Virus record (IMG/VR): IMGVR_UViG_3300029479_000005
Reading direction: 5' to 3' (one strand)
From: a virus
DNA: 58,493 nucleotides
Shown: one piece after another, positions 9,358 to 37,326 of the stretch
Position numbering within the stretch: position 1 is the stretch's first letter
Layout of the letters: every line of letters begins with the position of its first letter
Position numbers and translations under genes: made by a program
Notes under the pieces: model-generated
What the model saw: the letters and a program-made list of their open reading frames with translations, nothing else
Databases searched by the model: none
Told to the model about the DNA's origin: nothing

Positions 9358-10065
9358 ATGAGTAAACTAACATGGGATAAGATCGGTGAAAGACTATATG
9401 AAACCGGTACAAAAAAAGGCGTTCTATATCCAGCCTCAAAAGACGAACAAGGAGCTACCCAATATCCGAAAGGTGTGCCTTGGAACGGTTTGACCGCTGT
9501 AACAGAAAGCCCATCGGGAGCAGAGGCAACGCCTATATATGCAGATGATATTAAGTATTTGAATATCCAGTCAGCAGAAGATTTTGCCGCAACATTGGAA
9601 GCACTTATGTACCCTGAAGAATTTGCAGAATGCGATGGTTCCAAGTCAATAGTTGCGGGTGTAACAATCGGTCAGCAAAAGCGTAAGATGTTTGGATTGT
9701 CGTATGTTACCACTTTGGGTAATGACGTAGATGGAAATGATTATGGATACAAGTTACATATCGTGTATGGATGTATGGCTACACCATCAGAGAAAAACTA
9801 TGCAACAATCAATGATTCACCGGAAACAATTACTATGAGTTGGGAAATTTCTACTACACCGGTAGATATTCCGGGAGTAGATAAGGATGGTAATCCATTT
9901 AAACCAACAGCAACCATGACGTTTGACAGCACAAAGACTGATTCAAAGATAATGAAAGCAATCGAAGACATTCTTTACGGTACAGCTGATACCGAAGCAA
10001 GACTTCCATTGCCGGAAGAAATTCTTGAAATTCTTAAACCAAGTGATACATCAATTGTAGGCTAA
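9358..10065 (+). CDS. putative major tail protein (235 aa)
   Basis: Strong AAGGAGG ribosome-binding site, a strong terminator immediately downstream, typical size, and position before the chaperones and tape measure. Confidence 0.55.
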   Translation: MSKLTWDKIGERLYETGTKKGVLYPASKDEQGATQYPKGVPWNGLTAVTESPSGAEATPIYADDIKYLNIQSAEDFAATLEALMYPEEFAECDGSKSIVAGVTIGQQKRKMFGLSYVTTLGNDVDGNDYGYKLHIVYGCMATPSEKNYATINDSPETITMSWEISTTPVDIPGVDKDGNPFKPTATMTFDSTKTDSKIMKAIEDILYGTADTEARLPLPEEILEILKPSDTSIVG

Positions 10066-10131: not shown

Positions 10132-10554
10132 ATGATTAAAAAAACTATAACTTATACAGATTATAACGGAGTAAGCAGAACCGAAGATTTCTGGTTCAAT
10201 CTTAGTACGGCGGAACTTATGAAAATGGAATTGGGTACAAGAGGCGGCTTCTCAGAAATGATGACTAGAATCGTTCAAGCCAATGATGTGCCGACGATGA
10301 TGAAAGTATTTGATGATTTTATCAGAAAATCATACGGACAAAAGAGCCCGGATGGAAAAAGATTTATCAAGTCAGAGGCTATAACCGAAGAATTTTGCCA
10401 AACAGAAGCATACTCGAATCTATTCATGGAATTCATTACAGATACTGATAAAGCTATCGAATTCATGAACGGTATCGTTCCGACAGAAATCAGTAAAAAA
10501 GCCAATCTGGTTAACCAAAAGTCATTGATGGACGGAACAAATACTAATAATTAA
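10132..10554 (+). CDS. putative tail assembly chaperone (140 aa)
   Basis: Lies upstream of the tape measure. The N-terminus, TITYTDYNGVSRTEDFWFNLSTAEL, reads like chaperones of this type. Confidence 0.4.
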   Translation: MIKKTITYTDYNGVSRTEDFWFNLSTAELMKMELGTRGGFSEMMTRIVQANDVPTMMKVFDDFIRKSYGQKSPDGKRFIKSEAITEEFCQTEAYSNLFMEFITDTDKAIEFMNGIVPTEISKKANLVNQKSLMDGTNTNN

Positions 10555-10577
10555 GAAAATAAACGGGAGGAATAAGA

Positions 10578-11123
10578 ATGCTTCAAATAATTATACCTGC
10601 TGAAGAACGATGGGATGAAGAACACGAAGAATTTATTGTGTCTAAAAAAGAGCAAAAATTGATGTTGGAGCATTCTTTAGTGTCCCTTTCAAAATGGGAA
10701 TCTAAATGGCAAGTGCCTTTTCTATCAAAAAAGGAAAAGACATACGAGGAAACTTTAGATTATATAAAATGCATGACAATCACACAGAATGTAAGCGACG
10801 ATGTGTACAAGCGCTTAACATCTGAAAATTTGATGCAAATACGTTCATATATGGAGTCGCCGATGACGGCAACATCTATACATGATGAACCTGCTCCAAA
10901 GAATAGATCAGAAATTCTTACGAGTGAGGTTATTTATAATATGATGATTGCTTTTAATATCCCGTTCGAATGTCAAAAATGGCATTTAAATAGATTATTT
11001 ACTCTTATAAAAGTATGCGAGTTAAAAAATCGTAAGCCGAAGAAAAAAAGCCTGCGAGATATCATGCAACAAAATACTGCGATAAACGAAATGCGTAAGA
11101 AAAAATATAATACGAGGGGGTAA
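10578..11123 (+). CDS. hypothetical tail-module protein (181 aa)
   Basis: Called by position. Confidence 0.4.
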   Translation: MLQIIIPAEERWDEEHEEFIVSKKEQKLMLEHSLVSLSKWESKWQVPFLSKKEKTYEETLDYIKCMTITQNVSDDVYKRLTSENLMQIRSYMESPMTATSIHDEPAPKNRSEILTSEVIYNMMIAFNIPFECQKWHLNRLFTLIKVCELKNRKPKKKSLRDIMQQNTAINEMRKKKYNTRG

Positions 11124-11128: not shown

Positions 11129-11512
11129 ATGGAAATTATAAGCTTTAGACACAAAGGTGATTTTTCTAAATTAAGCCAATATTTAGAAAAAGTAAAATCC
11201 GTTATAAGAATGGATATTTTTAATAAATACGGTAAAAAGGGTGTTGATGCATTGTCAGCGGCAACTCCTGTGGATTCGGGTAAAACAGCATCATCTTGGT
11301 ATTACAAAATAGAAAAAAGTGCAGGGGCTACCGTAATAAGTTTTCACAATTCGAACATAAACAAAGGTGTTCCAATTGCTTTACTGATACAGTATGGTCA
11401 CGGTACAAGAAACGGAGGATATGTTCAAGGTCGTGATTATATAAATCCCGCACTCAGACCAATCTTTGACCAATTAGCAGATTCTGCATGGAAGGAGGTA
11501 ACTAATATATGA
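11129..11512 (+). CDS. putative HK97 gp10-like tail component (127 aa)
   Basis: Size fits, it sits next to the tape measure, and its stop overlaps the tape-measure start. Confidence 0.35.
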   Translation: MEIISFRHKGDFSKLSQYLEKVKSVIRMDIFNKYGKKGVDALSAATPVDSGKTASSWYYKIEKSAGATVISFHNSNINKGVPIALLIQYGHGTRNGGYVQGRDYINPALRPIFDQLADSAWKEVTNI

Positions 11513-14500
11513 GTACCGAAATCGATAGCAGAATTGTTGAAATGCGATTTGATAACAAGCATTTCGAAGAAAATGTAGCAACAAGTATGTCTACATTAGA
11601 TAGGCTTAAAGAAAAATTAAAAATGAAAGATGCGGCAACCGGATTGGAGAACATAAGTTCGGCTGCAAAAAAAGTTGATCTATCCGGATTAGACAGTGCG
11701 ATTGATAGTGTTAAAATTAAATTTTCATCAATGCAAGTTATAGCGGCAACTGCATTATCTAATTTAACAACATCTGCGATAAATGCCGGAAAAAAGATGA
11801 CATCAGCATTAGTTGACCCTTTGATTGAAGGGGGCAAAAAGAGAGCACTCAACATTGAACAGGCGAAATTTCAATTAGAAGGTTTGGGTGTTGCGTGGAA
11901 TACTATCAAAGATGACATTAATTATGGCGTAAAAAATACGGCATATGGCTTGGATGCAGCAGCTAAAGTTGCATCGCAATTAGTAGCTTCAAATGTGCAG
12001 GTTGGCGATTCAATGAGAACTGCGCTAAGAGCAGTATCTGGTGTCGCAGCAATGACGAATAGTGAGTATGAAGATATAGGTAGAGTATTCACTACCGTTG
12101 CTGGTAATGGTCGTTTAATGGGAGACCAATTACAACAACTTTCATCTAGAGGAATAAATGCTGCGGCAACACTGGCTAATTATCTCGGTAAAACCGAAGG
12201 TGAAATTCGAGATATGACTTCTAAGGGTAAAATAGATTTTGCTACATTTGCGGCTGCAATGGATGATGCTTTTGGAGAACATGCAAAAGAAGCTAATGCC
12301 ACATTTACAGGTTCCATGTCTAATATGAGGGCAGCATTATCTCGTATAGGAGCGGATATTGCTACACCAGCATTCCAAGATTTACGAGATATATTTAATA
12401 CTTTAACGCCTATCATAGACAAAGTTCATACGGCATTAGGACCACTTATTTCGGATATAGAAAAAGGAATGCGTCTAGCTACTGATTTTGTAATCAATAA
12501 GCTTAATGGTTTTTCAGATAGCTTTTTGACTTCCAATTGGGATAGACTTAAAGCTAAAATATCGGATACCGGAGTGGCGTTTGATGATTTTCAAAATGGT
12601 TTAATTGAAACTGCCAAATCTCATAACATAGCCATAGATGATATGATTCAAAAAGAAGGCTCGTTTGAAAATACTTTAAAAAGCGGATGGTTAACACCTG
12701 ATTTAATAGCAGAAACACTAAAAAATTTTACAAATGGTATTTCTGAAACAACCAGTGAAGTGGTTAACTTTGAAGAGGTTGTTAACCGAGTTATTAATGG
12801 TGATTTTGGAAATGGAGTCGAAAGAATTAATAGACTGACAGAAGCAGGTTATGATTATGCGACAGTACAAGGCTTAGTTAACGACGTATTAAAGGGTAAT
12901 GCTGTAAACTTCGAAAAAGTTGTCGATGTACAACAAAAATTTACGGATGGCGTATCGGAAGCAACGGGAGAAGTTGTTAATCTGAAAGACGTTGTGGATC
13001 AAGTTATAAACGGAGATTTCGGAAACGGAATAGTAAGAGTGAATAAACTAACCGAAGCGGGTTATGACTATGCAACTGTGCAGGGCTTGGTTAATGACGT
13101 ATTGTGGGGTAATGCTGTAAACTTCGAGAAAATGTCCGATGCTCAGTTGGAAAGCTTAGGTTATACAGAGGAGCAGATACAACTGCTTCATCAGTTAGGC
13201 GAAGAAGCCGAACGGACAGGTACTCCGTTAAACGAATTAATACTTAATCTTAATCGACCAACAGGAATATCTTTATTGATTGATTCGATTAGAAATGCAG
13301 TTCAAGGTATTACTAAAATAATAAACACTGTAAAGGCCGCATGGAATGATGTGTTTGCTAGCAACAATACAAATTTGCTATACCTGATGGTAAACGCAAT
13401 ACATAGTTTTTCTGAAAAACTTATAATGAGTGATGAAAATGCTGATAATTTAAGGCGAACTTTAAGGGGTTTATTTTCTGCACTCGATATTATTAAAAAT
13501 ATTGTGACTGGCGGATTAAAAACTGCATTTGATATAATAAATGCTATTTTGGCAGGCTTTGATTTAAATATTTTAGCTGTTACAGCCAAGATTGGAGATG
13601 CTATTACTAATTTTAGAGCATGGTATAAAGAACATAATTTATTAGCAACAGCATTAAAGAAATTAACTTCAATTATAAAAAATGCAATACAATTCGTTAA
13701 AGAATTTGTAAGTAAATTTAAAGAAATACCACAAATTCAATCGATAATCGAAAAAGTTAAAGATATAGCGGTTAAAGCTCTTGAAAAAATCGGTGAAATG
13801 TCCGAAAAAGGGCAAGAAAAAATACTGTCATTTATCGATAAACTAAAATCTTTGAACTCAATAAGTTTAAAAGATATAAAAATTGCATTCAAAGGGTTTA
13901 AAGATAACATATTTGAGTATTTTTTGAATTTTGACAACTTATCAAAAAATGTAAAAAACATATTCGGAACTCTAAAAGCAAAAATAAGCAGTAGCTTAGA
14001 AGCAACGGGTAGTTCGTTTGACGGTTTAAAAGCAAAAATAAATAGCTTTGTACACTTTATCCAAACCAAATTTTCGAAAGTTGGAATAGGAGAAGTATTA
14101 ACAGTAGGTTTTGGTGTATCATTAATAGCGTCTATTAGATTAGTATCTAAAGCTTTAGATAAGATTATGGGACCATTTAATGCAGTATCAAAAGTCGCTG
14201 GAAAAGTAAACGGAGTTTTATCAAAAACACAAGATGTACTTAAAAGCTATTCTGAGAAAATAAAGTCCGAGTCCCTGAAGAACGTTGCGATATCAATAGC
14301 TATTTTAGCTGGCTCGCTAGTGGTTTTAGCACAAGTTGATCCAGCTAAAGTTTGGTCTGCTGTTGGTGCATTAATTGTTTTATCAGGTGCTTTAGTTGGT
14401 ATAACAGCGCTTACGAGCAAAATTGGTAAAGTTGAAAAATTCTCGGTTAATATATTAGCTATATCAGCTGCAATTTTAATGCTTGTATTTGCACTAAAGG

Positions 14501-17500
14501 ATCTTAATAAATTAGATCCAATAAGAACTGTTCAGAGCTTGGCTGTTGTTTTAACTATGATATTAGGTTTAATAGCAGCTATAAGTTTGTTATCGAATAC
14601 CGCACCACAAACTAAATCCAGTGCTTTAACGATATTAGCAATAGCCGTATCGATAGGTATATTAGCCAATGCACTTGAAAAAATAGACAAACAGAATCCC
14701 TCTGGCAAATCTATTTTGGTTTTAATATCTATTATGGGGGCATTAGCCGGATTAATAGCGATAACCAATTTGGTAGCCAAAGACACAGTTAAAGCTGGTG
14801 TCAGTATGGTTGGTATAGCAGCGGCACTGTTAATATTATGTACTGCTTTTAACAAGATTGATCAGTTGAAAATAACTACTAAAACTATAGGCAATCTTAT
14901 AGTGATGGTAGGTGCTTTGACCGCATTGATGGCGGCTACCAGATTAGCAGGAAAAAATGCGACAAAAGCAGGTGTAGGAATGATAGGTGTGGCGTCATCT
15001 ATCTTTATCATGATCGAGGTCCTGAAAAGAATAGATAGCGTCAAAATCACAAGCAAAAAGGTTGAGACCTTAATAGGTATTATGGCTACATTATCACTGC
15101 TTATGGTAGCTACCAGATTAGCAGGAAAAAATGCGACAAAAGCAGGAGCAAGTATGTTGTTGATAGCAATATCGATAGGATTGCTTGCCGGAGTAATAGC
15201 GGTATTAAGTTTGGTAGATCCTAGTGGTTTAGACAGAGGATTGAAAGCTGTAAGTGTATTAGGACTCGTTGTAGCGGGGATCATCGCATCAACTAAATTA
15301 GCATCTACGTGTAAAGAAAGTCTAATAACACTAACTGTAGCAATAGGTATTTTAGTAGCCGGTTTAGGTGTACTGGCTATGATAGAACCGGAAAGCTTAA
15401 AAAATGCTACCGTAGCGATTTCAACAGTATTAGCCATGTTTGCAGTTGTATTGGCAGCGTCAAATTTGATATCAGAATCGTATAAAAGTATAATTGTAAT
15501 GACCGTAGCGATAACCGCTTTAGGAGCAATGTTATATCTGCTATCAGCAATAGATTCGGGTTCGATGTTGGCATCCGCACAATCGCTATCGCTATTGATG
15601 TTGTCTTTGTCGGCATCCATGTTGATTATAAGTAAAGCAGGTAAAGTATCATTATCAGCTATTGGATCTTTAGCATTAATCGGATTAGTAGTTGCAGAGT
15701 TGGCAACCATTTTAGCTGTAATGAATGGACTGAATGTTGCTCCGTCTATGGAAACTGCAAAAGCTCTATCTTTGTTGTTAGGAACAATGACAGGAGTTCT
15801 TGTTGTGCTGTCATTAGTGGGAGCAGGTGCAACTGCCGCATTCACCGGAATAGGAGTTCTCGCTGCTTTAATAGCGGCTGTAGGCGGCATAATGATAGGA
15901 TTAGGTGCGTTGATGGAATATGTTCCTAAGTGTCAGGAATGGCTAGATACAGGAATGGTAATTCTTGAAAAAATCGGCAATGGCATAGGATCATTTTTTG
16001 GTGGTATCGTTAACGGATTTAATACGAGTGCATCTTCTGATTTATCAAAGGTTGGTATTAATTTATCTGCTTTTATGAACTCCATTCAACCGTTTTTCGA
16101 TGGACTTTCGAAAATTGACGAATCAACATTAACTAAGCTAAAGCCGTTGACCAATTTTATGAAAGATTTCAAATCTTTTGATACGAATGAAAACTCCATG
16201 ACCGAAATAGAAAGCCAATTAATAACTTTTGGCGAAGCACTGAAGGGATTCGGAGCAAGTATATCAGGAATAAACATCGATGAGATAAATGTAGCGTCTA
16301 ATGCGGCAAAAGCTATAGCAGAAGTAAATAAGATTTTATCAAAGTATAAAACGACTAATATTTCGGATTTCGGTGCACAATTAGAACCATTTGGTAGATC
16401 GCTTAAAGCTTATGGTGAATCAGTCGATGGACTAAATGTTGAAGCTATAGAATTATCTGCAGAAGCGGCAAGTGCATTAAGCGAATTAGCCTCCGCATTA
16501 CCAAACAGTGGAGGTTGGGCAGGTATGTTTGCCGGTAACAACGACATTGACGATTTTGGCGCAAAGTTAATACCATTTGGAAGAGCATTAAAGAATTATG
16601 GTGATGCTGTTGACGGAGTAAATTCTGAAAGTATTGAGGAATCCGTTAAAGCCGGACAAGCACTGTCAGATTTGGCAAACGCATTACCAAACAGTGGAGG
16701 CTGGGCAGCAGCTTTTGCGGGTGACAACGATATAGCGGATTTCGGGGCAAAGCTGATTCCGTTCGGAAAAGCTATAACCGAATATGGCAACAGTGTTAGC
16801 GGCATAGATGTTGATAGTATAACAAAATCTACTACTGCAATTTCAGCGTTAAGCGAACTGGCTTCCGCATTACCAAACAGCGGAGGTTTTGCAGCGGCGT
16901 TCGCTGGTGATAACAGTATAGACGCTTTTGGAAGTAAGCTTATATCTTTTGGGGAATCTTTGAAAACATATAACGAACAAGTTTCTGATATGGATACGTC
17001 AGGAATTGAACGCGTAAATGATTTTATAAATTCGTTCAATGCATTGTCACAATCGATGTCTAATGGCAACTTAAAAGCTTTTTCTGATAGCAGTATTACG
17101 GATAATTTGAAGACACAATTCAAAGCATTCGGAGATGTTATAAAGAGCTTTAATGACAGTATAAAAGGTATGGATACCAAAGGCTTAGAAGCATCGGCTA
17201 ATGCCGGAAAAAGTATCGCTGAAATATCAAAGATAACTTCAGAAGGAAAACTGGGTAGGATATTCAGCGACGGAAACGGAGAGGGATTTAAAGCCGATTT
17301 AAAAGCATATGGTGAAGCGATAAAAGATTATGGCAAAGCCGTAAAAGGTATGAATACTGAAAATATAGCAGCAAGTGCGACTGCGGCTAATTCTATATTT
17401 AAAGTAGCAAAAACTATGTCCGGTGACGGGACTATAAACAGAATATTTACAGATGACGCAACCGCCGAACAATTTAAAAATGATATGCGTGTCATAACAG

Positions 17501-20500
17501 ATATTCTGCAAACGTATGGTGTTGGTTCACTTAGCATTGATTTAGGACACATAGAGGCCTCGAAAGAAGCATTTAACGATATAAAAGATTTTGTCGTTAA
17601 TATTCCGGATATAGATGACAATACTGATAATATTACAAATCTCAAGAAAAAGATGCAGATTATAGACAGTATTCTGCAAACGTATGGCGTAAGTTCACGA
17701 AGTATTGATTTGGGAAATGTACAAGCCTCGAAAGAAGCATTTAACGATATAAAAGATTTTGTCGTTAATATTCCTAATATAGACGATGATACTGATAATA
17801 TAAATAACTTTAAACAGCGAATGACTGCTATTTCGAGTATTCTTAAAACGTATGGTGGAAGCATTAAAGATATTGATTTAGGAAATGTACAGGCATCACA
17901 AAACGCATTTGACAACATAAAGAGTTTCGTAACCAATATACCTTCTTTGGATGATAATGCGACTAATATTGAAACGTTTGAAAAACAAGCCAATACAATA
18001 TCGAAAATATTATCCTCGTATAGTATAAATACAAAAGACATCGAAGTAAGTACAGTATATACAGCAAAACAAGCATTCGATTCGATAAAAGAGATGTTAA
18101 GTAACATGTCCAGTGTTACCGATTATTCTGCGAATATCGAGTCGTTTAAAGAGCAAATCGACAAAATTATTCGAATGTTAAAAGATTTTAACGAAGATAT
18201 AGTTAATGTCGATTTCAATAACATACAATCAGCGACGACCACATGCGAATCACTAGCAGGATTAGCCAGCAGTGTTTCAGACAACGATGGGAATTTGGAG
18301 GCGTTCGGTAATTCATTAATAGCATTCGGTGAGAAGTTATCTGAATTTTCTAACACAATCGGCGAGGTGGATTTGTCAGGTATCAGTGCCAATATAAATG
18401 ACCTTACCACATCTATACAAAATTCAGCAACACAAATCGGTGACGGGTTTGTTAATTCATTAAATACCGCTGGTTCGCAAATAGTTCAAGCGGCGACTGA
18501 TATGATAAACTCTGCTATATCAGCTATAACCGGTGCTACTTCTAATTTCCAAACAGAAGGAACAAACCTCGGTGATGCTATAGCTTCTGGATTAACAGCC
18601 GCCTCGGGAAATGTAACAGCAGCTGCTCAAAGTGTAGCTTCGGAAAGCGTATCAAGCGTAAGCCAGTATGATGGGCAATATAGAGCTGCCGGCTATAATA
18701 TGGCTGCAGGACTTGCATCTGGAATTAGTGCAGGAAACTCTCTTGCTGTAGATGCTGCTGTAAATATGGCTAAAAGTGCATTGGCCGCAGCAAAAGAAGA
18801 ACTTGGTATACATTCGCCATCAAGAGCTTTTATGGCAATCGGTAGATATATTGGCGAAGGCTTAGCAAACGGTATACGAGATAACGCATATAGAGCAGTT
18901 GATGAAACTGAAGCGTCAGCAGCAAAAGTTAAGAGTGTGGCGAAAAAGTCTTTTGATGATGTCGAAAAATGGGTAGAAGAAGCAAAGTCTTTCGACGAGT
19001 TGAGTTTGGCGGAGGAACTTGAAATATGGGATACTATGATTTCAAAATACTCTGAGGGTAGCGAAGAGAGACTGAAGGCTGAAAAAAATGCTTATGCAGT
19101 TCTTAAGGAATTAAGAGAAGAAGATTATCAGAATTCTAAGGATTGGATCGATAAAGAAAAAGATTACAATCGTATGAGTACCAAAGAGGAACTCGAGGCT
19201 TGGAAACGAGTTCAAGAGCGATACATTGAGGGTACAGACGAACGAGCAGAAATCGATAAAAAGATTTACGATCTGAAACACGAACTTATTGACGGAGATG
19301 TATATGCACTGGAAAGAGAAATTCAGGCTAATGATGACTTAATAGCATCATTGGAAGAAGAAACAGTTGCTTATTCTAATGCTGTAAAAGAAGGTATATA
19401 TCTTCGTAAGTTGTTAAAAGATGCGGAATATAGTACATCTAAGAATTGGATTGAAACCGAAAAAGATTATAATCGTTTAGATACTAAAGGTGAACTTGAA
19501 GCTTGGGAACGAGTTCAGGCAAGATATGAAGACGGTAGTGAAGAACGAATAGAAATCGATAAAAAGATTTACGATCTAAAGCACGAACTTATTGACGGTA
19601 ATATAGATGCGTTGGAAGACGAGATAGAAGCTAACAAACGTCTGATTGCAACTTTAGAAGAGGGTTCGGTTGCATGGTCAAACGCCGTTAAAGAGGGTGA
19701 ATACCTTAATAAACTACTGGTTGATGCTAATTATCAGAATTCTATGGACTGGATTCAAGACCAAGAGGATCGTGGGGAATATTCTTTAGCCGACAAATTA
19801 GCGTGGAATACTCGTATGCTGAATAAATACGGTAAGCGAGATAAGGAAACACGTAAAAAGTACGAAAAAGAAATCTATGCCACGCAAAAAGAAATCTACA
19901 ACGCTTATAAAGACTTTCTTGATGATTGTCAAAATGTTAAGGATGATTACGTCGAGAAAGAAAAGGAATTAAACGAAAAACTCGAACAGGACATTAAAGA
20001 ACTGGAAGATAATTATTCGGATACCCTCGATTCAAGGATTCAGTCACTTTATAATGCATATGGTTTGTTTGATAAGGTGGAGCAAAAAGGAAAAACCAGT
20101 GTTTCTGAATTGACAAAAAATCTTCAAGATCAAGTTGCAGAGTTTGAGGATTGGGACGATACACTTCAACAACTATCTAAACGAGGACTAAACCAAGCTT
20201 TGATAGAAGAACTTCAGGAAATGGGACCATCAGCTATTGCTAATATTCGAGGCTTGAATTCTATGACTGATGCCCAACTTTCGCAATATGCAAATTTGTG
20301 GGCTGAAAAGCATAAAGAAGCAACAGACAGAGCAACTGATGAATTAACCGACTTACGCAAAGAAACAAATAGCCAGATTAAAGAACTTAAAACCACATAT
20401 AATTCAGATTTGGACGAATTGAAGAAAGACACTGACGAAAAACTCAGTGAATTAAAAGATGCTTTCTTAAAGAATATCGGCGCTATCAAAGACGATACCG

Positions 20501-21234
20501 AAGAGAAATTCCAAGAAATTGTTTCTATAGCCAGCACGGTTTTAGGTTCTGCCGGTTGGGATGAACTCGGCGAATATATGGTTGATGGATTAATTGAGGG
20601 TGTAGAAAGCAAACAACCTGAATTTCTTAAAACTTTGGAGAGTCTTATTTCTGCCGGAACGGAAATAACTCAAGATACTGCCGAGATACACTCACCATCG
20701 AGAGTATTTGCCAGAATTGGCGAATATATGGTTGAAGGTTTGATAGGCGGTATTACTAATCGAAGTGATGATGCTTCTAAAGCGAGTGCGGATATGGCAC
20801 GCGGTACAATTCAGTCTGTAAGCAGATTGATAAGTGATATGTCTACAATAATCGATAGCGATATGGAGATAACACCAACCATAAGTCCTATTTTGGATAT
20901 GACAAATGTGCAGAATGGGCTTAATCAAATGGATAGCACACTTTCGGCAAACAGAAGTATTGCTCTAGGAATGAGTGTTGTGTCTAAAAATCAAAATGGA
21001 TTAGCATATCAGTTTGGTGATGCTATATCAAAGTTGGCAGATGCGAATACACAATCGAACGGTCAGATTGTAGACGCAATAGACGGTTTGAAAAGCGATT
21101 TATCTGACTTGGTAGATAGAGTAAGTCAATTACAAGTCGTGATGGATACAGGCGAATTGGTCGGCGCAATAAGTCCTGAAATGGACAGAAGTCTTGGTGT
21201 AGCAGCAATGATGAAAAGGAGAGGTAATATATGA
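11509..21234 (+). CDS. tail tape measure protein, 3241 aa
   Basis: An N-terminal tape-measure core (AYGLDAAAKVASQL...TKGKIDFATFAAAMDD). A long multi-TM segment of about 600 aa. Coiled-coil repeats. Two copies of the C-terminal motif IHSPSR(A/V)F..IG.Y..EGL..GI. Confidence 0.9.
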   Translation: MSTEIDSRIVEMRFDNKHFEENVATSMSTLDRLKEKLKMKDAATGLENISSAAKKVDLSGLDSAIDSVKIKFSSMQVIAATALSNLTTSAINAGKKMTSALVDPLIEGGKKRALNIEQAKFQLEGLGVAWNTIKDDINYGVKNTAYGLDAAAKVASQLVASNVQVGDSMRTALRAVSGVAAMTNSEYEDIGRVFTTVAGNGRLMGDQLQQLSSRGINAAATLANYLGKTEGEIRDMTSKGKIDFATFAAAMDDAFGEHAKEANATFTGSMSNMRAALSRIGADIATPAFQDLRDIFNTLTPIIDKVHTALGPLISDIEKGMRLATDFVINKLNGFSDSFLTSNWDRLKAKISDTGVAFDDFQNGLIETAKSHNIAIDDMIQKEGSFENTLKSGWLTPDLIAETLKNFTNGISETTSEVVNFEEVVNRVINGDFGNGVERINRLTEAGYDYATVQGLVNDVLKGNAVNFEKVVDVQQKFTDGVSEATGEVVNLKDVVDQVINGDFGNGIVRVNKLTEAGYDYATVQGLVNDVLWGNAVNFEKMSDAQLESLGYTEEQIQLLHQLGEEAERTGTPLNELILNLNRPTGISLLIDSIRNAVQGITKIINTVKAAWNDVFASNNTNLLYLMVNAIHSFSEKLIMSDENADNLRRTLRGLFSALDIIKNIVTGGLKTAFDIINAILAGFDLNILAVTAKIGDAITNFRAWYKEHNLLATALKKLTSIIKNAIQFVKEFVSKFKEIPQIQSIIEKVKDIAVKALEKIGEMSEKGQEKILSFIDKLKSLNSISLKDIKIAFKGFKDNIFEYFLNFDNLSKNVKNIFGTLKAKISSSLEATGSSFDGLKAKINSFVHFIQTKFSKVGIGEVLTVGFGVSLIASIRLVSKALDKIMGPFNAVSKVAGKVNGVLSKTQDVLKSYSEKIKSESLKNVAISIAILAGSLVVLAQVDPAKVWSAVGALIVLSGALVGITALTSKIGKVEKFSVNILAISAAILMLVFALKDLNKLDPIRTVQSLAVVLTMILGLIAAISLLSNTAPQTKSSALTILAIAVSIGILANALEKIDKQNPSGKSILVLISIMGALAGLIAITNLVAKDTVKAGVSMVGIAAALLILCTAFNKIDQLKITTKTIGNLIVMVGALTALMAATRLAGKNATKAGVGMIGVASSIFIMIEVLKRIDSVKITSKKVETLIGIMATLSLLMVATRLAGKNATKAGASMLLIAISIGLLAGVIAVLSLVDPSGLDRGLKAVSVLGLVVAGIIASTKLASTCKESLITLTVAIGILVAGLGVLAMIEPESLKNATVAISTVLAMFAVVLAASNLISESYKSIIVMTVAITALGAMLYLLSAIDSGSMLASAQSLSLLMLSLSASMLIISKAGKVSLSAIGSLALIGLVVAELATILAVMNGLNVAPSMETAKALSLLLGTMTGVLVVLSLVGAGATAAFTGIGVLAALIAAVGGIMIGLGALMEYVPKCQEWLDTGMVILEKIGNGIGSFFGGIVNGFNTSASSDLSKVGINLSAFMNSIQPFFDGLSKIDESTLTKLKPLTNFMKDFKSFDTNENSMTEIESQLITFGEALKGFGASISGINIDEINVASNAAKAIAEVNKILSKYKTTNISDFGAQLEPFGRSLKAYGESVDGLNVEAIELSAEAASALSELASALPNSGGWAGMFAGNNDIDDFGAKLIPFGRALKNYGDAVDGVNSESIEESVKAGQALSDLANALPNSGGWAAAFAGDNDIADFGAKLIPFGKAITEYGNSVSGIDVDSITKSTTAISALSELASALPNSGGFAAAFAGDNSIDAFGSKLISFGESLKTYNEQVSDMDTSGIERVNDFINSFNALSQSMSNGNLKAFSDSSITDNLKTQFKAFGDVIKSFNDSIKGMDTKGLEASANAGKSIAEISKITSEGKLGRIFSDGNGEGFKADLKAYGEAIKDYGKAVKGMNTENIAASATAANSIFKVAKTMSGDGTINRIFTDDATAEQFKNDMRVITDILQTYGVGSLSIDLGHIEASKEAFNDIKDFVVNIPDIDDNTDNITNLKKKMQIIDSILQTYGVSSRSIDLGNVQASKEAFNDIKDFVVNIPNIDDDTDNINNFKQRMTAISSILKTYGGSIKDIDLGNVQASQNAFDNIKSFVTNIPSLDDNATNIETFEKQANTISKILSSYSINTKDIEVSTVYTAKQAFDSIKEMLSNMSSVTDYSANIESFKEQIDKIIRMLKDFNEDIVNVDFNNIQSATTTCESLAGLASSVSDNDGNLEAFGNSLIAFGEKLSEFSNTIGEVDLSGISANINDLTTSIQNSATQIGDGFVNSLNTAGSQIVQAATDMINSAISAITGATSNFQTEGTNLGDAIASGLTAASGNVTAAAQSVASESVSSVSQYDGQYRAAGYNMAAGLASGISAGNSLAVDAAVNMAKSALAAAKEELGIHSPSRAFMAIGRYIGEGLANGIRDNAYRAVDETEASAAKVKSVAKKSFDDVEKWVEEAKSFDELSLAEELEIWDTMISKYSEGSEERLKAEKNAYAVLKELREEDYQNSKDWIDKEKDYNRMSTKEELEAWKRVQERYIEGTDERAEIDKKIYDLKHELIDGDVYALEREIQANDDLIASLEEETVAYSNAVKEGIYLRKLLKDAEYSTSKNWIETEKDYNRLDTKGELEAWERVQARYEDGSEERIEIDKKIYDLKHELIDGNIDALEDEIEANKRLIATLEEGSVAWSNAVKEGEYLNKLLVDANYQNSMDWIQDQEDRGEYSLADKLAWNTRMLNKYGKRDKETRKKYEKEIYATQKEIYNAYKDFLDDCQNVKDDYVEKEKELNEKLEQDIKELEDNYSDTLDSRIQSLYNAYGLFDKVEQKGKTSVSELTKNLQDQVAEFEDWDDTLQQLSKRGLNQALIEELQEMGPSAIANIRGLNSMTDAQLSQYANLWAEKHKEATDRATDELTDLRKETNSQIKELKTTYNSDLDELKKDTDEKLSELKDAFLKNIGAIKDDTEEKFQEIVSIASTVLGSAGWDELGEYMVDGLIEGVESKQPEFLKTLESLISAGTEITQDTAEIHSPSRVFARIGEYMVEGLIGGITNRSDDASKASADMARGTIQSVSRLISDMSTIIDSDMEITPTISPILDMTNVQNGLNQMDSTLSANRSIALGMSVVSKNQNGLAYQFGDAISKLADANTQSNGQIVDAIDGLKSDLSDLVDRVSQLQVVMDTGELVGAISPEMDRSLGVAAMMKRRGNI
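12742..13164 (+). repeat. in-frame tandem repeat inside the tape measure, 2 copies of about 70 aa (…VINGDFGNG(V/I)(E/V)R(I/V)N(R/K)LTEAGYDYATVQGLVNDVL…GNAVNFEK)
   Basis: Near-identical peptide and nucleotide copies, seen directly. Confidence 0.8.
14869..15230 (+). repeat. in-frame tandem repeat inside the tape-measure TM region, 2 copies of about 59 aa (KIT(T/S)K…ATRLAGKNATKAG…)
   Basis: The 45-nt stretch ACCAGATTAGCAGGAAAAAATGCGACAAAAGCAGG recurs at about 14938 and about 15115. Confidence 0.75.
16200..17010 (+). repeat. in-frame tandem repeats inside the tape measure: 3 strong plus 2 degenerate copies of about 60 aa (ALPNSGG(W/F)A..FAG(N/D)N(D/S)I(D/A)(D/A)FG(A/S)KLI(P/S)FG)
   Basis: Seen directly. 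Confidence 0.8.
17467..18230 (+). repeat. in-frame tandem repeats inside the tape measure: about 4.5 copies of about 56 aa (…ILQTYG…IDLGNVQASKEAFNDIKDFVVNIP.IDD.TDNI…)
   Basis: Seen directly; the first two copies are nearly identical. Confidence 0.8.
18958..19900 (+). repeat. in-frame tandem repeats inside the tape measure: 2 strong plus 2 degenerate copies of about 101 aa (DWI(D/E).EKDYNR..TK.ELEAW.RVQ.RY..G..ER.EIDKKIYDLKHELIDG…)
   Basis: Seen directly. Confidence 0.8.
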
Positions 21235-22181
21235 TTCAATCGATAACATTTTTTAAAAGTCCTGACGATATTCTAAAATCACATGATAAGAATACAAAAG
21301 TGGACTGTAAAAATACATGGGATGATTGGCATATATTAGCCGAATCCCGTCCGGTCTTTGCGCCACCCGAACCAAAGACGAATTATATAGATGTACCGGG
21401 AGGAAACGGATCTCTGGATTTATCGGAGGCTCTTACGCGTTACCCAACGTACAATAACCGTACCGGTACATTTAAATTTAAGGTTATGAATGATTACGAG
21501 GTCGGTAACCGCATTGTTTTAGAGTCGAATGATCGTAATCGTTGGGCTCAAAGGTATTCGGAAATTATGGAGTATTTACACGGAAAATGCTTATATGCGG
21601 TTTTGGACGATGATCCAACATGGTTTTATCAAGGGCGTTTTACAGTAGATTCGTGGGAGTCAAATGATACTTGGTCTGTTATAACAATCGGGTACAATGT
21701 GAATCCATTTAAATGGAATGTATCATCATCTACTTCTGATTGGCTGTGGGATCCGTTTAACTTTGAAACAGGAGTTACTTGGGATACCATATGTACCGAT
21801 ATAGAAATAGATAATCAAAATGGATTTAGTGAAATGCAATTTCCACCATATACTTTGGATTCCGATTCAATGAATACTTTCTTTGGCGGTGTTCCGATTT
21901 CACCAACGATAACATTTAAACCAAAATGCCCGACTCATCATAACTTATTAACCTATAATAACGGAATATTGAGGTGTCCCAAAAGCAGTTGCGGTGAATT
22001 GGATAAAGGTATAGATATTCGATTTGTCAATTCATATTTGGATATTGACATCACAATGAATTTTAAAGGCGGAACAACATTTGCTCCTGATTTCATTTTC
22101 TATGGACAAACCAGACCGTATAAAATGTATTTTAAAGGAGTAGGTACTGTTTCAATAGATTTTAGAGTGGGGAGGTTATAA
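21231..22181 (+). CDS. putative distal tail protein (Dit)
   Basis: Immediately downstream of the tape measure with an ATGA overlap; 316 aa; siphovirus gene order. Confidence 0.55.
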   Translation: MIQSITFFKSPDDILKSHDKNTKVDCKNTWDDWHILAESRPVFAPPEPKTNYIDVPGGNGSLDLSEALTRYPTYNNRTGTFKFKVMNDYEVGNRIVLESNDRNRWAQRYSEIMEYLHGKCLYAVLDDDPTWFYQGRFTVDSWESNDTWSVITIGYNVNPFKWNVSSSTSDWLWDPFNFETGVTWDTICTDIEIDNQNGFSEMQFPPYTLDSDSMNTFFGGVPISPTITFKPKCPTHHNLLTYNNGILRCPKSSCGELDKGIDIRFVNSYLDIDITMNFKGGTTFAPDFIFYGQTRPYKMYFKGVGTVSIDFRVGRL

Positions 22182-22184: not shown

Positions 22185-24680
22185 ATGTATAGTATAATGG
22201 GTGACGGCGTTATGATTTACAGTGATGTATCTCCTACAGAGAGCCGAAAAGCAGACAGTCCAAAACTTACGTTAAAGGACAATGCCGCAGGCTCTCTGGA
22301 AATAACTCTTCCACCGGGAAACGCCGGATATGATATATTGAAACGTATGACATCTGAAATAATCGTATATCGGGACAAACAAGAATTATGGAGAGGCAGA
22401 ATACTCTCTGAAAAAATGAATTTCTGGAATAACCGAACTTTAACTTGTGAGGGTGAACTGTCATATTTGAACGATACAATTCAACCGCAAGCAAAGTATC
22501 CGGAGGGAACGACTGTCGGAAGTTTTCTGACTTCTATTTTGGACAACCATAATAAACGATATGGCGATGATGAAGAAAGATATAAGTTTTACATTGATGA
22601 AGCATATATCTATAACTACAACGAGCCATTTGCAGAAGAAATTGTTACCGATTACGGAAAGACATTAGATGCTATAAACGAAAATGTTGTCAATGCTTTT
22701 GAATGTCATCTCTGTATAAAAAGAATCGGCGATAAGAAATACATAAGTCTGATAAAAGAAGAATATCAACTTAATGAGAACTCGCAAATTATAAGATTCG
22801 GAGATAATCTTTTAGATTTCACAAAGAATTGGGATTTAACAGATTTGGCAACGGTCTTAATCCCGAGAGGTGCAACCATAGAACAGGAATCAACCGAGGA
22901 TTCGGATGCGTTTGATACTTATGTAACACTGTCCGATATTCCTAAGGGAGATGTGGTTGATAAAGAAGAAATCGGATATTATGAGCGAGATAAAGATGGA
23001 AAACTTACTCACAATGAAGATGGAAATTTGATTTATATTTATCCCGACAAAAAAGACGAAAATGGAAATTTAGTCTATAAATACAAAGTGGATAAAAACG
23101 GTTATATTACTATTGAAAGTAAGACGTTGGATAACTCGGTTACTGTTCCGACGATACGAGTAGACACAAAAACAAATAAGAAAGATACCGTTATGGTTGA
23201 ATTTCTTGATTACAGTATTGATAGCGATAATAAGGTTACATCTACGATTACTGCTAAGATCGAAACAGACGGAACATATGCGAATGTGTACTTGAAGAAC
23301 GAAAACGAGGAGTTCTATTGCCTTAAAGATATATACGGACGAGTCGAAGCCGTTGCAGATTTCAGCGAGGCAAAGGATTCAATCGAACTTTTAAAGAAGA
23401 CACGAGATTATATAAAAGAACATCAGTTTGACCAAATGACTCTTGAAGTATCGGCAGTCGATTTGCGATATTTGTCGAATATTAACGAGCCGGTAAAAAT
23501 TCTTGATCGTATAAGATGTATTTCTTATCCACACGGAATGAATACCTTGTTTACGGTAACTGAACTGAGCATAGAGCTTGATAAGCCTGACAGTGCAAAA
23601 TATACTCTCGAAAAGACTCTTTTGAATACTTCAGGTACATCTTCGTTATCTGAAACAATGAGTTCGGTGTCTTCGGAGATAGAATCACCGCATTCTACAA
23701 TATTAAAGAACGCACAAGCAAACGCCGATAAAATGCTGAGGGAGAATACAAACGGTTATGTGTCATTGATTACAAATAATCAAAATGGACAACATTCAGA
23801 GGCTTTAGTCGTATCTTCAGGTAAGGACTATACACGTTCGGAACACTTTTGGATATGGAACGTTAACGGTCTCGGTCATTATACGGAATATGCCAATCAG
23901 GATGCTCCTCAAGGCGATGCCGATGATAAAACCGATACCTTTTGGAACAACGGAAAACCATATAAGCTAAATCTCGGTATAACTATGGACGGTGCGATTG
24001 TCGCGAATCGTATAACCGTCGGTCATATGAGTGCCGATAGAGTTCGCACAGGTGTATTAATGTCGCAAGACGGAAATGTCGTGTGGAATTTGAATAAAGG
24101 CGGAAGTATGGTTATAAAGAAAGGCTCTATAGATTTGGGAAATAGCTCATTCAGTGTTAATGACAATGGAGAATTAAGAGCTGTTAAAGGTTATATAGGT
24201 GGTTTCGTCATCGAGGCGGATAATCTGCATAATGACTGTATAACTTTGGATAAAAGCGGACTGGTACTCGTCAATGAAAAAACGAATGTCGGTAAAATCG
24301 GAACAACTCAATGGGAAAACGAACCGAGTAAAAAGATTCTGTCTATGAGCTTGGAACCCGATGGCGCTGCGATTGTTTGGGGATATAGAGAAAAGCCTAC
24401 TGATGAAAAATATACTGCTCAGTTTATTTATGCAGCTAAGGATTATGCACAGTATGAAGCAGGAAATTTCTATATGCACGGAAATTTGGATTTGAGAGGT
24501 CGCGAGTTGAAGAATTTTGTAATAGATCCAGTAAACAGTAAGAACAATATATCTGGCAGTATTACATTAGATGATCCAATTTTATTGGTAAAACCAGGTT
24601 TTATAACTGCAGATGGAACAGTCGATTATACAAAAACAATAAGTGTAAAGATTCAAAATGGTTTTGTCGTAAATAGGTAA
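22185..24680 (+). CDS. putative tail-associated protein (Tal) / tail tip protein, 831 aa
   Basis: Called by position after the distal tail protein and by size; no lytic domain recognised. Confidence 0.55.
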   Translation: MYSIMGDGVMIYSDVSPTESRKADSPKLTLKDNAAGSLEITLPPGNAGYDILKRMTSEIIVYRDKQELWRGRILSEKMNFWNNRTLTCEGELSYLNDTIQPQAKYPEGTTVGSFLTSILDNHNKRYGDDEERYKFYIDEAYIYNYNEPFAEEIVTDYGKTLDAINENVVNAFECHLCIKRIGDKKYISLIKEEYQLNENSQIIRFGDNLLDFTKNWDLTDLATVLIPRGATIEQESTEDSDAFDTYVTLSDIPKGDVVDKEEIGYYERDKDGKLTHNEDGNLIYIYPDKKDENGNLVYKYKVDKNGYITIESKTLDNSVTVPTIRVDTKTNKKDTVMVEFLDYSIDSDNKVTSTITAKIETDGTYANVYLKNENEEFYCLKDIYGRVEAVADFSEAKDSIELLKKTRDYIKEHQFDQMTLEVSAVDLRYLSNINEPVKILDRIRCISYPHGMNTLFTVTELSIELDKPDSAKYTLEKTLLNTSGTSSLSETMSSVSSEIESPHSTILKNAQANADKMLRENTNGYVSLITNNQNGQHSEALVVSSGKDYTRSEHFWIWNVNGLGHYTEYANQDAPQGDADDKTDTFWNNGKPYKLNLGITMDGAIVANRITVGHMSADRVRTGVLMSQDGNVVWNLNKGGSMVIKKGSIDLGNSSFSVNDNGELRAVKGYIGGFVIEADNLHNDCITLDKSGLVLVNEKTNVGKIGTTQWENEPSKKILSMSLEPDGAAIVWGYREKPTDEKYTAQFIYAAKDYAQYEAGNFYMHGNLDLRGRELKNFVIDPVNSKNNISGSITLDDPILLVKPGFITADGTVDYTKTISVKIQNGFVVNR

Positions 24681-32141: not shown

Positions 32142-32156
32142 TAGGGGGGCATTTTT

Positions 32157-32626: not shown

Positions 32627-32642
32627 CAACTAAAACTGTAAA

Positions 32643-37296: not shown

Positions 37297-37326
37297 TACG
37301 CATAAAAAACAATGTGTATTATGGAA
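37297..37326 (+). promoter_or_regulatory. promoter-like motif family member (TACGCATAAAAAACAATGTGTATTATGGAA)
   Basis: Copy 5 of 11. Confidence 0.35.

Follow-up and report, generated by a model that had tools for sequence, protein, structure and literature searches.

The open reading frame (ORF) at 11509 to 21234 on the plus strand of the window (the whole 58,493-nucleotide stretch of viral DNA analyzed here) encodes a tape measure protein (TMP), as identified by domain content and gene position. We consider it highly probable that this TMP belongs to a temperate siphovirus with a 58.4-kb circular contig and an uncultured human-gut Clostridia host, from a lineage that is Oengusvirus-like and has a protease-capsid gene fusion, and that it works by the mechanism outlined below. 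By analogy with distant cultured homologues, the tail of this phage is probably about 460 to 550 nm long. Similarly giant TMPs form a very large, uncultured family, in which this one is unexceptional. TMP length change by in-frame unit duplication or loss is already known, and the current understanding of tape measures is unchanged.

The tape measure gene and its neighborhood

The ORF begins with ATG, has zero internal stops, and encodes 3,241 amino acids, the length given by the first-pass annotation, which had also named it a tape measure protein. That name was borne out by scores above the cutoffs for Pfam TMP_3 (60.1 bits; cutoff, 41) and TIGR02675 (tape_meas_nterm; 30.5; cutoff, 21.35) and by a position between the chaperone gene and the Dit and Tal genes. 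The gene order is major tail protein (MTP), chaperone, 181-aa ORF, 127-aa ORF, TMP, distal tail protein (Dit), and Tal, and the 127-aa ORF runs 4 nt into the TMP gene. Along its length, the protein matched 15 PHROG families of TMPs or tail proteins. All PHROG matches of known function were to such families, with the exception of endolysin families on the CW_7 repeats and one overlapping the N-terminal region. A long helical protein with hydrophobic or transmembrane (TM) segments is typical of TMPs; this one has about 20 hydrophobic helices, and an AlphaFold2 (AF2) model of residues 1612 to 1803, of low confidence, is helical apart from the linkers. Coordinates of all features are given in Table 1.

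Table 1 Features of the TMP gene and of the tail genes around it (all coordinates are positions in the window)
Feature	Residues	Coordinates	Strand	Basis or remark
Major tail protein (MTP)		9358..10065	+	phrog_2645, E = 2e-102
Tail assembly chaperone		10132..10554	+	Pfam Phage_TAC_17, E = 2e-43
Conserved 181-aa protein between chaperone and TMP		10578..11123	+	phrog_4338
127-aa protein, candidate tail completion protein		11129..11512	+	match to phrog_5 (tail completion/Neck1)
TMP gene, 3,241 aa		11509..21234	+	intact ORF; 16.7% of 58,394-bp genome
N-terminal TMP_3 domain	133-282	11905..12354	+	Pfam PF20155, E = 3e-16
Repeat A, 71-aa unit, 2 copies + 35-aa partial third	378-554	12640..13170	+	self-profile
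Hydrophobic block, ~20 TM-like helices	858-1475	14080..15933	+	Kyte-Doolittle scan, charge-free stretches
Repeat B, 58-aa two-helix hydrophobic unit, 6 copies	911-1257	14239..15279	+	self-profile, E = 1e-13 to 7e-28
Repeat C, single 13-unit array	1559-2303	16183..18417	+	self-profile, 13 matches, E = 1e-14 to 1e-23
Polymorphic 186-bp unit	1663-1724	16494..16679	+	absent from P0123/L002 (3,179-aa variant)
HSPSR module copy 1	2395-2471	18691..18921	+	pairs with aa 3021-3094, E = 1.5e-8
Repeat D, Trp-containing charged helical unit, 4 copies	2459-2806	18883..19926	+	self-profile, E = 1e-34 to 1e-44
Charged helical spacer	2807-3020	19927..20568	+	PHROG TMP families phrog_1686, phrog_1272
HSPSR module copy 2	3021-3094	20569..20790	+	pairs with copy 1
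C-terminal tail	3095-3241	20791..21234	+	position; 80alpha analogy
Distal tail protein (Dit)		21231..22181	+	phrog_33, E = 2e-13
Tal-like tail protein		22185..24680	+	phrog_3558, E = 9e-63; weak Pfam Prophage_tail match

No canonical G/GT chaperone pair made by -1 programmed frameshifting was found upstream of the TMP gene: TAA at 10560 to 10562 closes the -1 frame, and a slip at AAAAAAG (10495 to 10501) would reach a stop at 10512. The 181-aa ORF was considered as a -1 frameshift product and rejected, having its own ribosome binding site and start codon (GGGAGG, then ATG). Such pairs are common in TMP loci but do not define a TMP. The same non-frameshift arrangement lies upstream of the TMP genes of Faecalibacterium phage FP_oengus and the Arthrobacter cluster AU phages.

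Many long antisense ORFs lie over the TMP gene, all in one antisense phase and all devoid of Pfam matches. When codons were shuffled within 300-codon blocks, the longest open antisense stretch was 329 ± 104 codons, and 37% of shuffles reached at least 342. These results agree with their earlier description as composition artefacts. For the neighboring Mtd_N protein, a search for a diversity-generating retroelement yielded no direct repeat of at least 40 nt pairing with 28973 to 30439 and no reverse transcriptase among the subset of ORFs scanned.

Repeat families of the protein

The modules read, from the N terminus, as a TMP_3 domain, 2.5 CW_7-containing units, about 20 hydrophobic helices, a 13-unit helix-turn-helix array, and a first HSPSR module, followed by four Trp-containing charged units, a charged helical spacer, a second HSPSR module, and the C-terminal tail. 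At the DNA level, the five repeat periods are 213, 174, 186, 168, and 303 nt, all multiples of 3 and in frame. BLASTP of segments of the five repeat families against the protein gave E values of 1e-22 to 5e-36, far beyond chance. The first-pass annotation had listed five separate in-frame families; all five periods are present, but the 62-aa and 56-aa types are sub-types of one array. A sixth family, the non-tandem HSPSR module, was absent from that list. The growth by in-frame internal duplication that it had proposed is supported.

Repeat A had been described as two 70-aa units. Two copies are indeed present, but the period is 71 aa and a 35-aa partial third copy follows; the DNA carries a 212-nt repeat of 75% identity at 213-nt spacing. 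Each full unit contains one CW_7 cell-wall-binding repeat (Pfam PF08230, Cpl-7 type; 87.4 bits against a cutoff of 25, in 2 stretches), and the region matches the sequences of the Cpl-7 lysozyme entries 5i8l (E = 1.4e-11) and 4cvd in the PDB. The hydrophobic block is kept in all homologues, with 390 to 740 hydrophobic residues. Repeat B sits inside it, and the 59-aa TM unit reported there in two copies exists as a 58-aa unit with three copies by DNA (174-nt spacing) and six by profile.

Repeat C is an uninterrupted array with periods of 53 to 62 aa, in which each unit consists of a 48-aa helix-turn-helix core and a Gly-rich linker. A profile seeded on either sub-type recovered all 13 units, and the family profile likewise gave 13. 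Sub-types are marked by ALPNSGGW (62 aa) and ASKEAFNDIKDFVVNIP (56 aa); identity is 58 to 69% within sub-types and about 20% between them. The ALPNSGGW unit, previously given as 60 aa in three to five copies, has three clear copies but measures 62 aa and belongs to the 13-unit array; it was not found in Pfam. The ASKEAFNDIKDFVVNIP unit was correctly sized at 56 aa, and its proposed four to five copies were recovered by profile (three by DNA), but it is not a family of its own. In the AF2 model of three units (aa 1612 to 1803; pLDDT, 52), each unit has two helices of about 20 aa, a turn of 4 to 5 residues, and a non-helical Gly-rich linker of about 16 aa.

The best pair of repeat D units lies 101 aa apart, with a 300-nt DNA repeat of 71% identity at 303-nt spacing; the two copies by DNA and four by profile fit the two to four copies of a 101-aa unit first reported. 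The charged spacer gave a weak Pfam Apolipoprotein-like match at aa 2896 to 3003.

Predicted tail length

In cultured homologues with the hydrophobic block, tail length corresponds to 0.143 to 0.170 nm per residue over the full TMP length, which leads to the predicted 460 to 550 nm. An earlier estimate of about 480 nm is fair. The relation between TMP length and tail length holds in the homologous cluster AU phages: Giantsbane has a TMP of 1,529 aa and a tail of 219 nm, and Caterpillar has a TMP of 1,527 aa and a tail of about 260 nm. The tails of about 500 nm observed in Gordonia phages Katyusha, Benczkowski14, and GMA7, whose TMP genes measure 9,084 to 9,141 bp, show that a TMP of such size does specify a half-micrometre tail.

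Alternatively, only part of the TMP may act as the ruler, with units folded back, arranged in a six-helix bundle or similar, or carried as cargo, and the tail would then measure roughly 250 to 350 nm. Each C unit is predicted to comprise a pair of helices, about 20 aa each, with a turn of 4 to 5 residues and a Gly-rich linker, the B units are paired hydrophobic helices, and unit count is only weakly tied to total length. In phage 80alpha, moreover, in-tube TMP density is not interpretable past residues 1 to 37. Given the non-helical linkers of about 16 aa in the AF2 model, the C array might fold back rather than extend fully, which would shorten the tail. However, the homologues sharing the hydrophobic block show 0.143 to 0.170 nm per residue across the full length, and leaving out the hydrophobic span would need 0.23 to 0.29 nm per residue, impossible values that exceed the rise of an alpha-helix. 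Katyusha, with a gene of 9,084 bp and a TMP of about 3,027 aa, does in fact have a tail of 500 nm, and deletions in the hydrophobic regions of the TP901-1 TMP shorten the tail. On these grounds we regard a partial ruler as unlikely and prefer the full-length ruler, in which the C array is putatively included.

Integrity of the ORF and natural length variants

Fusion of a normal-sized TMP to another tail protein, for example a tail lysin or minor tail protein, would mean that the C-terminal third of the ORF is not tape measure; we regard this as very improbable. Residues 2316 to 2474 match residues 922 to 1080 of the Staphylococcus phage 80alpha TMP (PDB 6v8i; E = 1.3e-12). That module lies near the C terminus of the 1,154-residue 80alpha protein but 770 aa before the end of this one, and it could mark an ancestral C terminus. 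Yet the HSPSR module occurs again at aa 3021 to 3094, and relatives carry one to five copies, which indicates that a module and its spacer were duplicated internally and speaks against fusion. Pfam and TIGR profile scans revealed no enzymatic domain in the TMP, PHROG TMP families span aa 2636 to 3198, and Dit and Tal are encoded separately downstream.

The gene is repeat-rich and one related contig is off by exactly one unit, but it is extremely improbable that the length and copy numbers are artefacts of repeat expansion or collapse or of a chimeric ORF, since exact internal repeats reach 50 nt at most, adjacent units are 60 to 87% identical at the nucleotide level, 14 of the 15 listed members of a 244-member cluster (at least 90% identity) have 3,241 aa in independent assemblies, sequences of this length recur in many samples on contigs up to 355 kb, and distant relatives have a colinear TMP architecture. 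Mis-assembly, which the first-pass annotation had named as the outcome that would undo its claim, is effectively excluded without long reads. One independent contig differs at 7 nt.

The remaining listed sequence, of 3,179 aa, lacks exactly one 62-aa unit. The corresponding 186-bp unit lies between exact direct repeats of 21 bp, CGCATTACCAAACAGTGGAGG. The deletion was read on three contigs only, and an assembly artefact behind it is unlikely. Insertions and deletions (indels) relative to four further relatives (P0002, P0003, P0005, and P0034) measure 71 aa (an A unit), 60 or 346 aa (C units), and 101 or 43 aa (D), and P0005 lacks exactly 101 aa at the position of repeat D. The suggestion that tail length is evolutionarily plastic is upheld by these whole-unit differences and by the natural 3,179-aa variant.

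The family in metagenomes

The 62-aa unit is present in about 3,000 protein clusters (50% identity), mostly of 2,000 to 3,500 aa. Among 243 sampled homologues, the median length is 2,439 aa and the maximum is 3,906 aa, and 8 are as long as or longer than 3,241 aa. The earlier label "exceptionally long" is thus apt in comparison with cultured phages only, not within the protein's own metagenomic family. The recommended check of TMP length and copy number in relatives gave 0 to 17 of the 62-aa units in the sampled homologues, with indels of whole units, and up to 19 units in a representative library. Total length correlated weakly with unit number across the 243 homologues (r = 0.21), indicating that other modules co-vary and that length cannot be predicted from the number of units by itself. 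Within the phage collection, matches to the 62-aa array were limited to three uncultured faecal contigs.

Siphovirus tail length affects receptor access through capsule, mucus, and thick cell wall. To our knowledge, very long tails are rare in cultured phages. Here, a widespread gut Clostridia prophage devotes one sixth of its genome to a TMP with a predicted tail of about half a micrometre, built from exchangeable 56- to 101-aa units with a natural one-unit polymorphism. The 3,241- and 3,179-aa variants offer a concrete test case for the ruler model, and the 62-aa unit, which is not curated in Pfam, could be used to annotate some 3,000 clusters of giant metagenomic TMPs.

Proposed mechanism

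By analogy with TP901-1, 80alpha, and lambda, three extended TMP copies would nucleate on Dit/Tal through their C termini, and the C-terminal tail should dock with the tip complex formed by Dit and Tal. Rings of tube protein would then stack up to the TMP N terminus, which the 127-aa protein from the preceding gene would cap, yielding roughly 110 rings and the predicted tail of about 460 to 550 nm. During infection the TMP would be ejected C terminus first; the hydrophobic block is proposed to insert in the membrane as a DNA conduit, and the CW_7 repeats to hold the trailing part in peptidoglycan. Recombination or slippage between diverged direct repeats may add or remove units and so tune length.

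A more speculative extension, which we consider doubtful, is that module order mirrors the Gram-positive envelope during C-terminus-first threading, and that the roughly 3,000 clusters represent a highly prevalent, uncultured class of gut Clostridia siphoviruses with polymorphic tails of 0.35 to 0.6 µm. Roughly the last 1,750 aa, with the C, D, and HSPSR modules, would pass to or across the membrane. The conduit there would be of unusual size, made of the block of about 20 helices, or about 60 in a trimer, and the N-terminal part trailing behind would be anchored in peptidoglycan through the CW_7 repeats. Single-unit indels, as between the 3,241- and 3,179-aa variants, would make tail length polymorphic in natural populations.

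Comparison with known phages

FP_oengus (Oengusvirus) resembles this phage in its 58.4-kb genome, temperate lifestyle, and gut Clostridia host. The two share the gene order of fused protease-capsid, MTP, chaperone of about 140 aa, 181-aa ORF, 127/128-aa ORF, and TMP. The N-terminal 1,260 aa of the TMPs, including the hydrophobic block, are 24 to 26% identical. The FP_oengus TMP is 1,039 aa shorter (2,202 aa) and has one HSPSR module and no detectable 62-aa or D units; in the gapped alignment, it lacks a Pfam-grade pair of CW_7 repeats at the matching site. A megablast search of 50,697 phage records, with 4.9 kb of packaging and capsid genes as the query, gave no match and thus no genus-level nucleotide similarity to Oengusvirus. 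Synteny and the fused protease-capsid gene link the phage to Oengusvirus, but only above the rank of genus.

Arthrobacter cluster AU phages (Gordonvirus; Giantsbane, Caterpillar, and Shepard) also have a fused capsid-protease gene, and their TMPs, half as long at 1,527 to 1,529 aa, share the homologous N-terminal region and a block of about 480 hydrophobic residues. Giantsbane gp26 is 51% identical to the 127-aa protein, equal in length, with the same 4-nt overlap with the TMP gene. Cluster AU phages differ in having no CW_7, C array, or D array, in being lytic, and in their actinobacterial hosts. The Katyusha and GMA7 TMPs (about 3,030 to 3,050 aa) are likewise giant, the present gene being about 600 bp longer; they and that of Benczkowski14 were not among the best matches listed for this TMP, and they have lytic transglycosylase domains, of which none was found here.

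The predicted tail had been ranked among the longest implied for any siphovirus. It would not be a record, because Thermus phages P74-26 and P23-45, siphoviruses unrelated in sequence as far as tested, have the longest known tails, at nearly 1 µm; that of P74-26 is nearly twice the predicted length. In 80alpha, the TMP is a trimer whose N termini bind the tail completion protein and whose C termini bind Tal, and 39 to 40 rings are formed per 1,154-aa TMP. The 937-aa TMP of Lactococcus phage TP901-1, in which deletions and duplications alter tail length proportionally, also acts as a helical ruler and contains hydrophobic regions as well as internal repeats. It has six predicted TM segments, compared with about 20 here, and its repeats are aromatic-marked units of 11 or 18 aa. 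That TMP length varies as in-frame units are duplicated or lost is well established (Belcaid et al. 2011; Moreno-Rodriguez et al. 2026); whereas published examples involve 11-aa units or homorepeats, the units described here, including the 62-aa one outside Pfam, are structured modules of 56 to 101 aa.

A 3,241-residue tape measure protein in a complete phage genome

The first and last 99 nt of the window were 100% identical by DNA repeat finding, and because these ends match, the window represents a complete phage genome of 58,394 unique bp, assembled as a circular or terminally overlapping contig. A long, uninterrupted ORF, which begins with ATG and takes up 16.7% of the genome, encodes a tape measure protein (TMP). 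The protein scored 60.1 bits against Pfam TMP_3 (cut-off, 41) and above the cut-off for TIGR02675, and 15 PHROG families of TMPs or tail proteins matched different parts over its full length. It also carries two Pfam CW_7 cell-wall-binding repeats (87.4 bits versus 25), which match the sequences of Cpl-7 lysozyme structures 5i8l and 4cvd. No enzymatic domain was detected in the TMP.

The TMP gene lies within a standard siphovirus late operon. Phages of Arthrobacter cluster AU/AM, Streptomyces BI, Gordonia DJ, and Rhodococcus CC are reported to have, as a hallmark, the same fusion of prohead protease and capsid protein in one gene, and this links the gut Clostridia phage to their lineage. For the region 10132-11123, which spans the chaperone gene and the 181-aa ORF, a canonical G/GT −1 frameshift from the first into the second was rejected, since the 181-aa ORF has its own GGGAGG RBS and ATG; the −1 frame after the chaperone is closed by a TAA at 10560-10562. 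The Faecalibacterium phage FP_oengus has the same three-gene arrangement.

Coordinates of features in the window (nucleotides unless marked aa, which refers to TMP residues)
Feature	Position	Strand	Details
Identical ends	1-99; 58395-58493
Large terminase	3791-5536
Portal	5608-6852
Fused protease-capsid protein	6845-8707		620 aa, one gene; prohead protease (Peptidase_S78, phrog_3270) and major capsid protein
Tail terminator	9036-9341
Major tail protein	9358-10065
Tail assembly chaperone	10132-10554		Pfam Phage_TAC_17
181-aa ORF			first of two ORFs between chaperone and TMP
127-aa ORF	11129-11512		second of two ORFs between chaperone and TMP
TMP	11509-21234	+	3,241 aa
Repeat A	aa 378-554		71-aa unit x2 plus 35-aa partial third; one CW_7 repeat per full unit
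Hydrophobic block	aa 858-1475		encloses repeat B; ~20 TM-like helices
Repeat B	aa 911-1257		58-aa unit with two hydrophobic helices; 6 detectable copies
Repeat C	aa 1559-2303		one uninterrupted 13-unit array; each unit a 48-aa core, then linker
C unit absent from the 3,179-aa variant	16494-16679		aa 1663-1724
Module E (HSPSR)	aa 2395-2471; aa 3021-3094		two non-tandem copies
Repeat D	aa 2459-2806		four Trp-containing charged units; best pair 101 aa apart
Dit	21231-22181
Tal-like protein	22185-24680
Amidase endolysin; tyrosine integrase, minus strand			further 3′ of Tal-like gene
Mtd_N protein	28973-30439		488 aa
Likely attP	32141-32643		gap between amidase and integrase
GAGTCCTAACAAGGGCTCTTTTCTTTT copies	27033, 35586, 36890, 37581, 37831, 38169, 39190, 40665
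TACGCGAAAAAAACAATGTGTATTATGGAA copies	26935, 35240, 36051, 37285, 37858, 40311, 55649
97-nt repeat	37297-37393; 37870-37966		93% identity
DUF6353 genes	38228-38995; 39555-40316; 42000-42941		three paralogs

Four tandem repeat families and one dispersed module within the TMP

Repeats were mapped by 80-aa sliding-window BLASTP against the protein, by self-trained profiles, and by DNA repeat finding, with concordant results. (BLASTP of the whole protein against itself returned the diagonal alone, and the sliding windows were used instead.) All three approaches bore out the existence of the repeat families proposed in the first-pass annotation, and the DNA periods of 213, 174, 186, 168, and 303 nt, each a multiple of three, keep the units in frame. 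The unit sizes given there needed minor correction, and its five separate families became four tandem families (A to D) plus one dispersed module (E). The supposed 60-aa ALPNSGGW family corresponds to units C2 to C4(5) and the supposed 56-aa ASKEAFNDIKDFVVNIP family to units C8 to C11 of a single array, in which successive periods are 57, 62, 62, 62, 59, 61, 62, 56, 56, 56, 56, and 53 aa. Identity was 58 to 69% inside each of these subtypes and ~20% across the two, and a self-profile seeded by the ALPNSGGW type alone recovered all 13 C units (E = 1e-14 to 1e-23). Copies of repeat A shared 46 to 57% amino acid identity, depending on the stretch compared, and 61% nucleotide identity.

The 62-aa C unit matched no Pfam family. 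AF2, given three C units and a 41-row unit-shifted alignment, returned a low-confidence model (pLDDT 52, pTM 0.38), of which only the secondary structure was used; it predicts two ~20-residue helices per unit, joined to a ~16-residue non-helical Gly-rich linker.

Seven antisense ORFs of at least 100 aa lie within the TMP gene, all in one antisense phase. In that phase, a stop arises only where a codon ending in T or C precedes a sense Tyr, His, or Gln codon, and the hydrophobic and repeat regions contain few of these three residues. Shuffling of codon blocks produced open antisense stretches of 329 ± 104 codons versus 356 observed, and a Pfam scan of the four longest ORFs gave no match. Coding potential was rejected on these grounds, in agreement with the earlier view that the antisense ORFs are composition artefacts.

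TMP length is reproducible across assemblies and, among close relatives, varies mostly by whole repeat units

An assembly artefact was rejected as the source of the TMP length because exact repeats inside the gene are at most 50 nt long (the next being 38, 27, 21, and 21 nt) and the same length recurs in independent assemblies. Adjacent repeat units share 60 to 87% DNA identity. The TMP cluster at ≥90% identity holds 244 sequences, and 14 of the 15 listed are exactly 3,241 aa long; these 14 differ from the representative by 1 to 18 substitutions and were assembled independently from many metagenomes, with contigs reaching 355 kb. In an independent NCBI contig, the TMP gene differs at 7 of 9,726 nt.

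The sole listed member of another length, a 3,179-aa variant (P0123) seen on three contigs, lacks exactly one 62-aa unit. The corresponding DNA in the window is flanked by a 21-bp exact direct repeat, CGCATTACCAAACAGTGGAGG, a pattern characteristic of repeat-mediated recombination or slippage. Global alignments of the window TMP with its nearest relatives (P0002, P0003, P0005, and P0034; 38 to 52% identity) placed nearly all large indels inside the repeat arrays, and their sizes were mostly whole units or multiples: 71 aa for repeat A, 60 and 346 aa for C, and 101 or 43 aa for D.

When 1.84 billion cluster representatives were searched with a profile of the 62-aa unit, 3,084 proteins matched with E ≤ 1e-3, and 1,873 with E ≤ 1e-30. 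Most of the top 150 matches were 2,000 to 3,500 aa long, with 6 to 19 matched stretches near positions 1,400 to 2,100. Among 243 sampled homologues, each of at least 1,900 aa, the median length was 2,439 aa and the maximum 3,906 aa; 14 reached at least 3,000 aa and 8 at least 3,241 aa. The window TMP, described as exceptionally long in the first-pass annotation, is typical of a very large metagenomic family, in the upper part of its size range. C-unit number ranged from 0 to 17 in this sample and correlated weakly with total length (r = 0.21), so the proposal that C-unit copy number drives family length was dropped, while that of whole-unit indels among close relatives was retained. Other modules covary, and total TMP length appears to be loosely constrained.

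Ratios from homologous phages predict a half-micrometer tail

The N-terminal region and a hydrophobic block of ~480 residues are common to the window TMP and those of cluster AU phages, two of which served as calibration: Giantsbane (TMP, 1,529 aa; tail, 219 ± 15 nm) and Caterpillar (1,527 aa; ~260 nm). Over the full TMP length, these give 0.143 to 0.170 nm/aa, in keeping with the 0.15 nm per residue assumed earlier. If the hydrophobic span is left out, 0.23 to 0.29 nm/aa is needed, which exceeds the α-helix limit; the hydrophobic block therefore counts as part of the ruler. In TP901-1, TMP deletions, including those in the hydrophobic region, shorten the tail by ~0.15 nm/aa, and the Gordonia phages Katyusha and Benczkowski14, with TMP genes of 9,084 bp, have tails of ~500 nm.

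The C array might partially fold back inside the tail, as the alternation of helices and Gly-rich linkers in the AF2 model would allow; the cluster AU TMPs used for calibration have no array C. With the full TMP length as the ruler, the ratios predict a tail of 463 to 551 nm for 3,241 aa, and the 80alpha ratio of 39 to 40 rings per 1,154 aa predicts ~112 tube rings.

A proposed assembly pathway and a candidate tail completion protein

Tube rings of siphovirus tails polymerize along a docked TMP. In the window phage, a TMP trimer would dock in the Dit/Tal hub through its C-termini, tube rings would polymerize along the docked trimer, and a tail completion protein would cap the TMP N-termini. 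After adsorption, the TMP would leave the tube C-terminus first; its hydrophobic block would probably insert in the membrane, and its CW_7 repeats would probably serve as an anchor in the peptidoglycan. The order of modules in the TMP is consistent with such an exit and with these membrane and peptidoglycan roles, without proving them.

In 80alpha, the TMP N-termini are capped by the tail completion protein. A good candidate for this partner in the window phage is the product of the 127-aa ORF, whose end overlaps the start of the TMP gene by 4 nt. It shares 51% identity with gp26 of Giantsbane, an actinobacterial (Arthrobacter) phage, and gp26 has equal length and an equal overlap with its own TMP gene. 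Conservation of this protein is thus much higher than that of the TMP (~25%).

Host, relatives, and other elements of the genome

The contig collection lists exact copies of the integrase sequence in 1,185 blocks. Among loci L003-L008, the integrase of L005 has the neighbours seen in the window, holin and amidase genes (circular form); in five metagenomic contigs, it abuts host genes encoding a GGGtGRT protein, phosphofructokinase, and valyl-tRNA synthetase, with SSB and microcompartment genes also near the integrated prophage. Circular and integrated forms are thus both on record. The valyl-tRNA synthetase beside integrated copies shares 95% identity with its counterpart in an uncultured Oscillospiraceae MAG, which identifies the host as an uncultured gut Clostridia bacterium.

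When contigs of GTDB species representatives were scanned with the TMP, no close relative emerged, and a megablast search of 50,697 phage records with the packaging and capsid region returned nothing. The best tblastn matches of the TMP, all at 25 to 30% identity, were uncultured human-faecal contigs, FP_oengus, the Bifidobacterium phage BitterVaud1, and Arthrobacter cluster AU phages. FP_oengus shares the gene order of the window and has a TMP of 2,202 aa; the literature searched held no electron microscopy of FP_oengus or BitterVaud1. Within the phage collection, array C matched only three uncultured faecal contigs.

The genome contains 7 to 8 nearly identical copies of a ~45-nt hairpin with a T-run, GAGTCCTAACAAGGGCTCTTTTCTTTT, between small early genes, which looks like a reused intrinsic terminator cassette. 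Just 3′ of several of these putative terminators lies a repeated ~42-nt element, TACGCGAAAAAAACAATGTGTATTATGGAA, that may be a phage-specific promoter or operator. A 97-nt stretch present twice includes the RBS and start of two paralogous small ORFs. The three early DUF6353 genes were assigned from Pfam marks on identical genes in loci L003-L008.

One 488-aa protein has an N-terminal Mtd_N domain (28.5 bits versus a cut-off of 26.3), Mtd being the major tropism determinant of Bordetella phage BPP-1. No reverse transcriptase was found among the ORFs scanned, and a diversity-generating retroelement (DGR) around the gene was rejected because there is no template/variable repeat (TR/VR) pair. The protein probably binds the receptor and has no active DGR.

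Comparison with known tape measure proteins

In Pfam and the literature searched, no description was found of the 62-aa unit, of a ~20-helix block joined with CW_7 repeats, or of the natural one-unit TMP polymorphism. TMP growth through tandem units is already known, as are giant TMPs and half-micrometer tails, found in Katyusha, GMA7, and the Lactococcus phages 949 and L47 (480 to 500 nm for the latter two); the tail of P74-26 is longer still, at nearly 1 µm.
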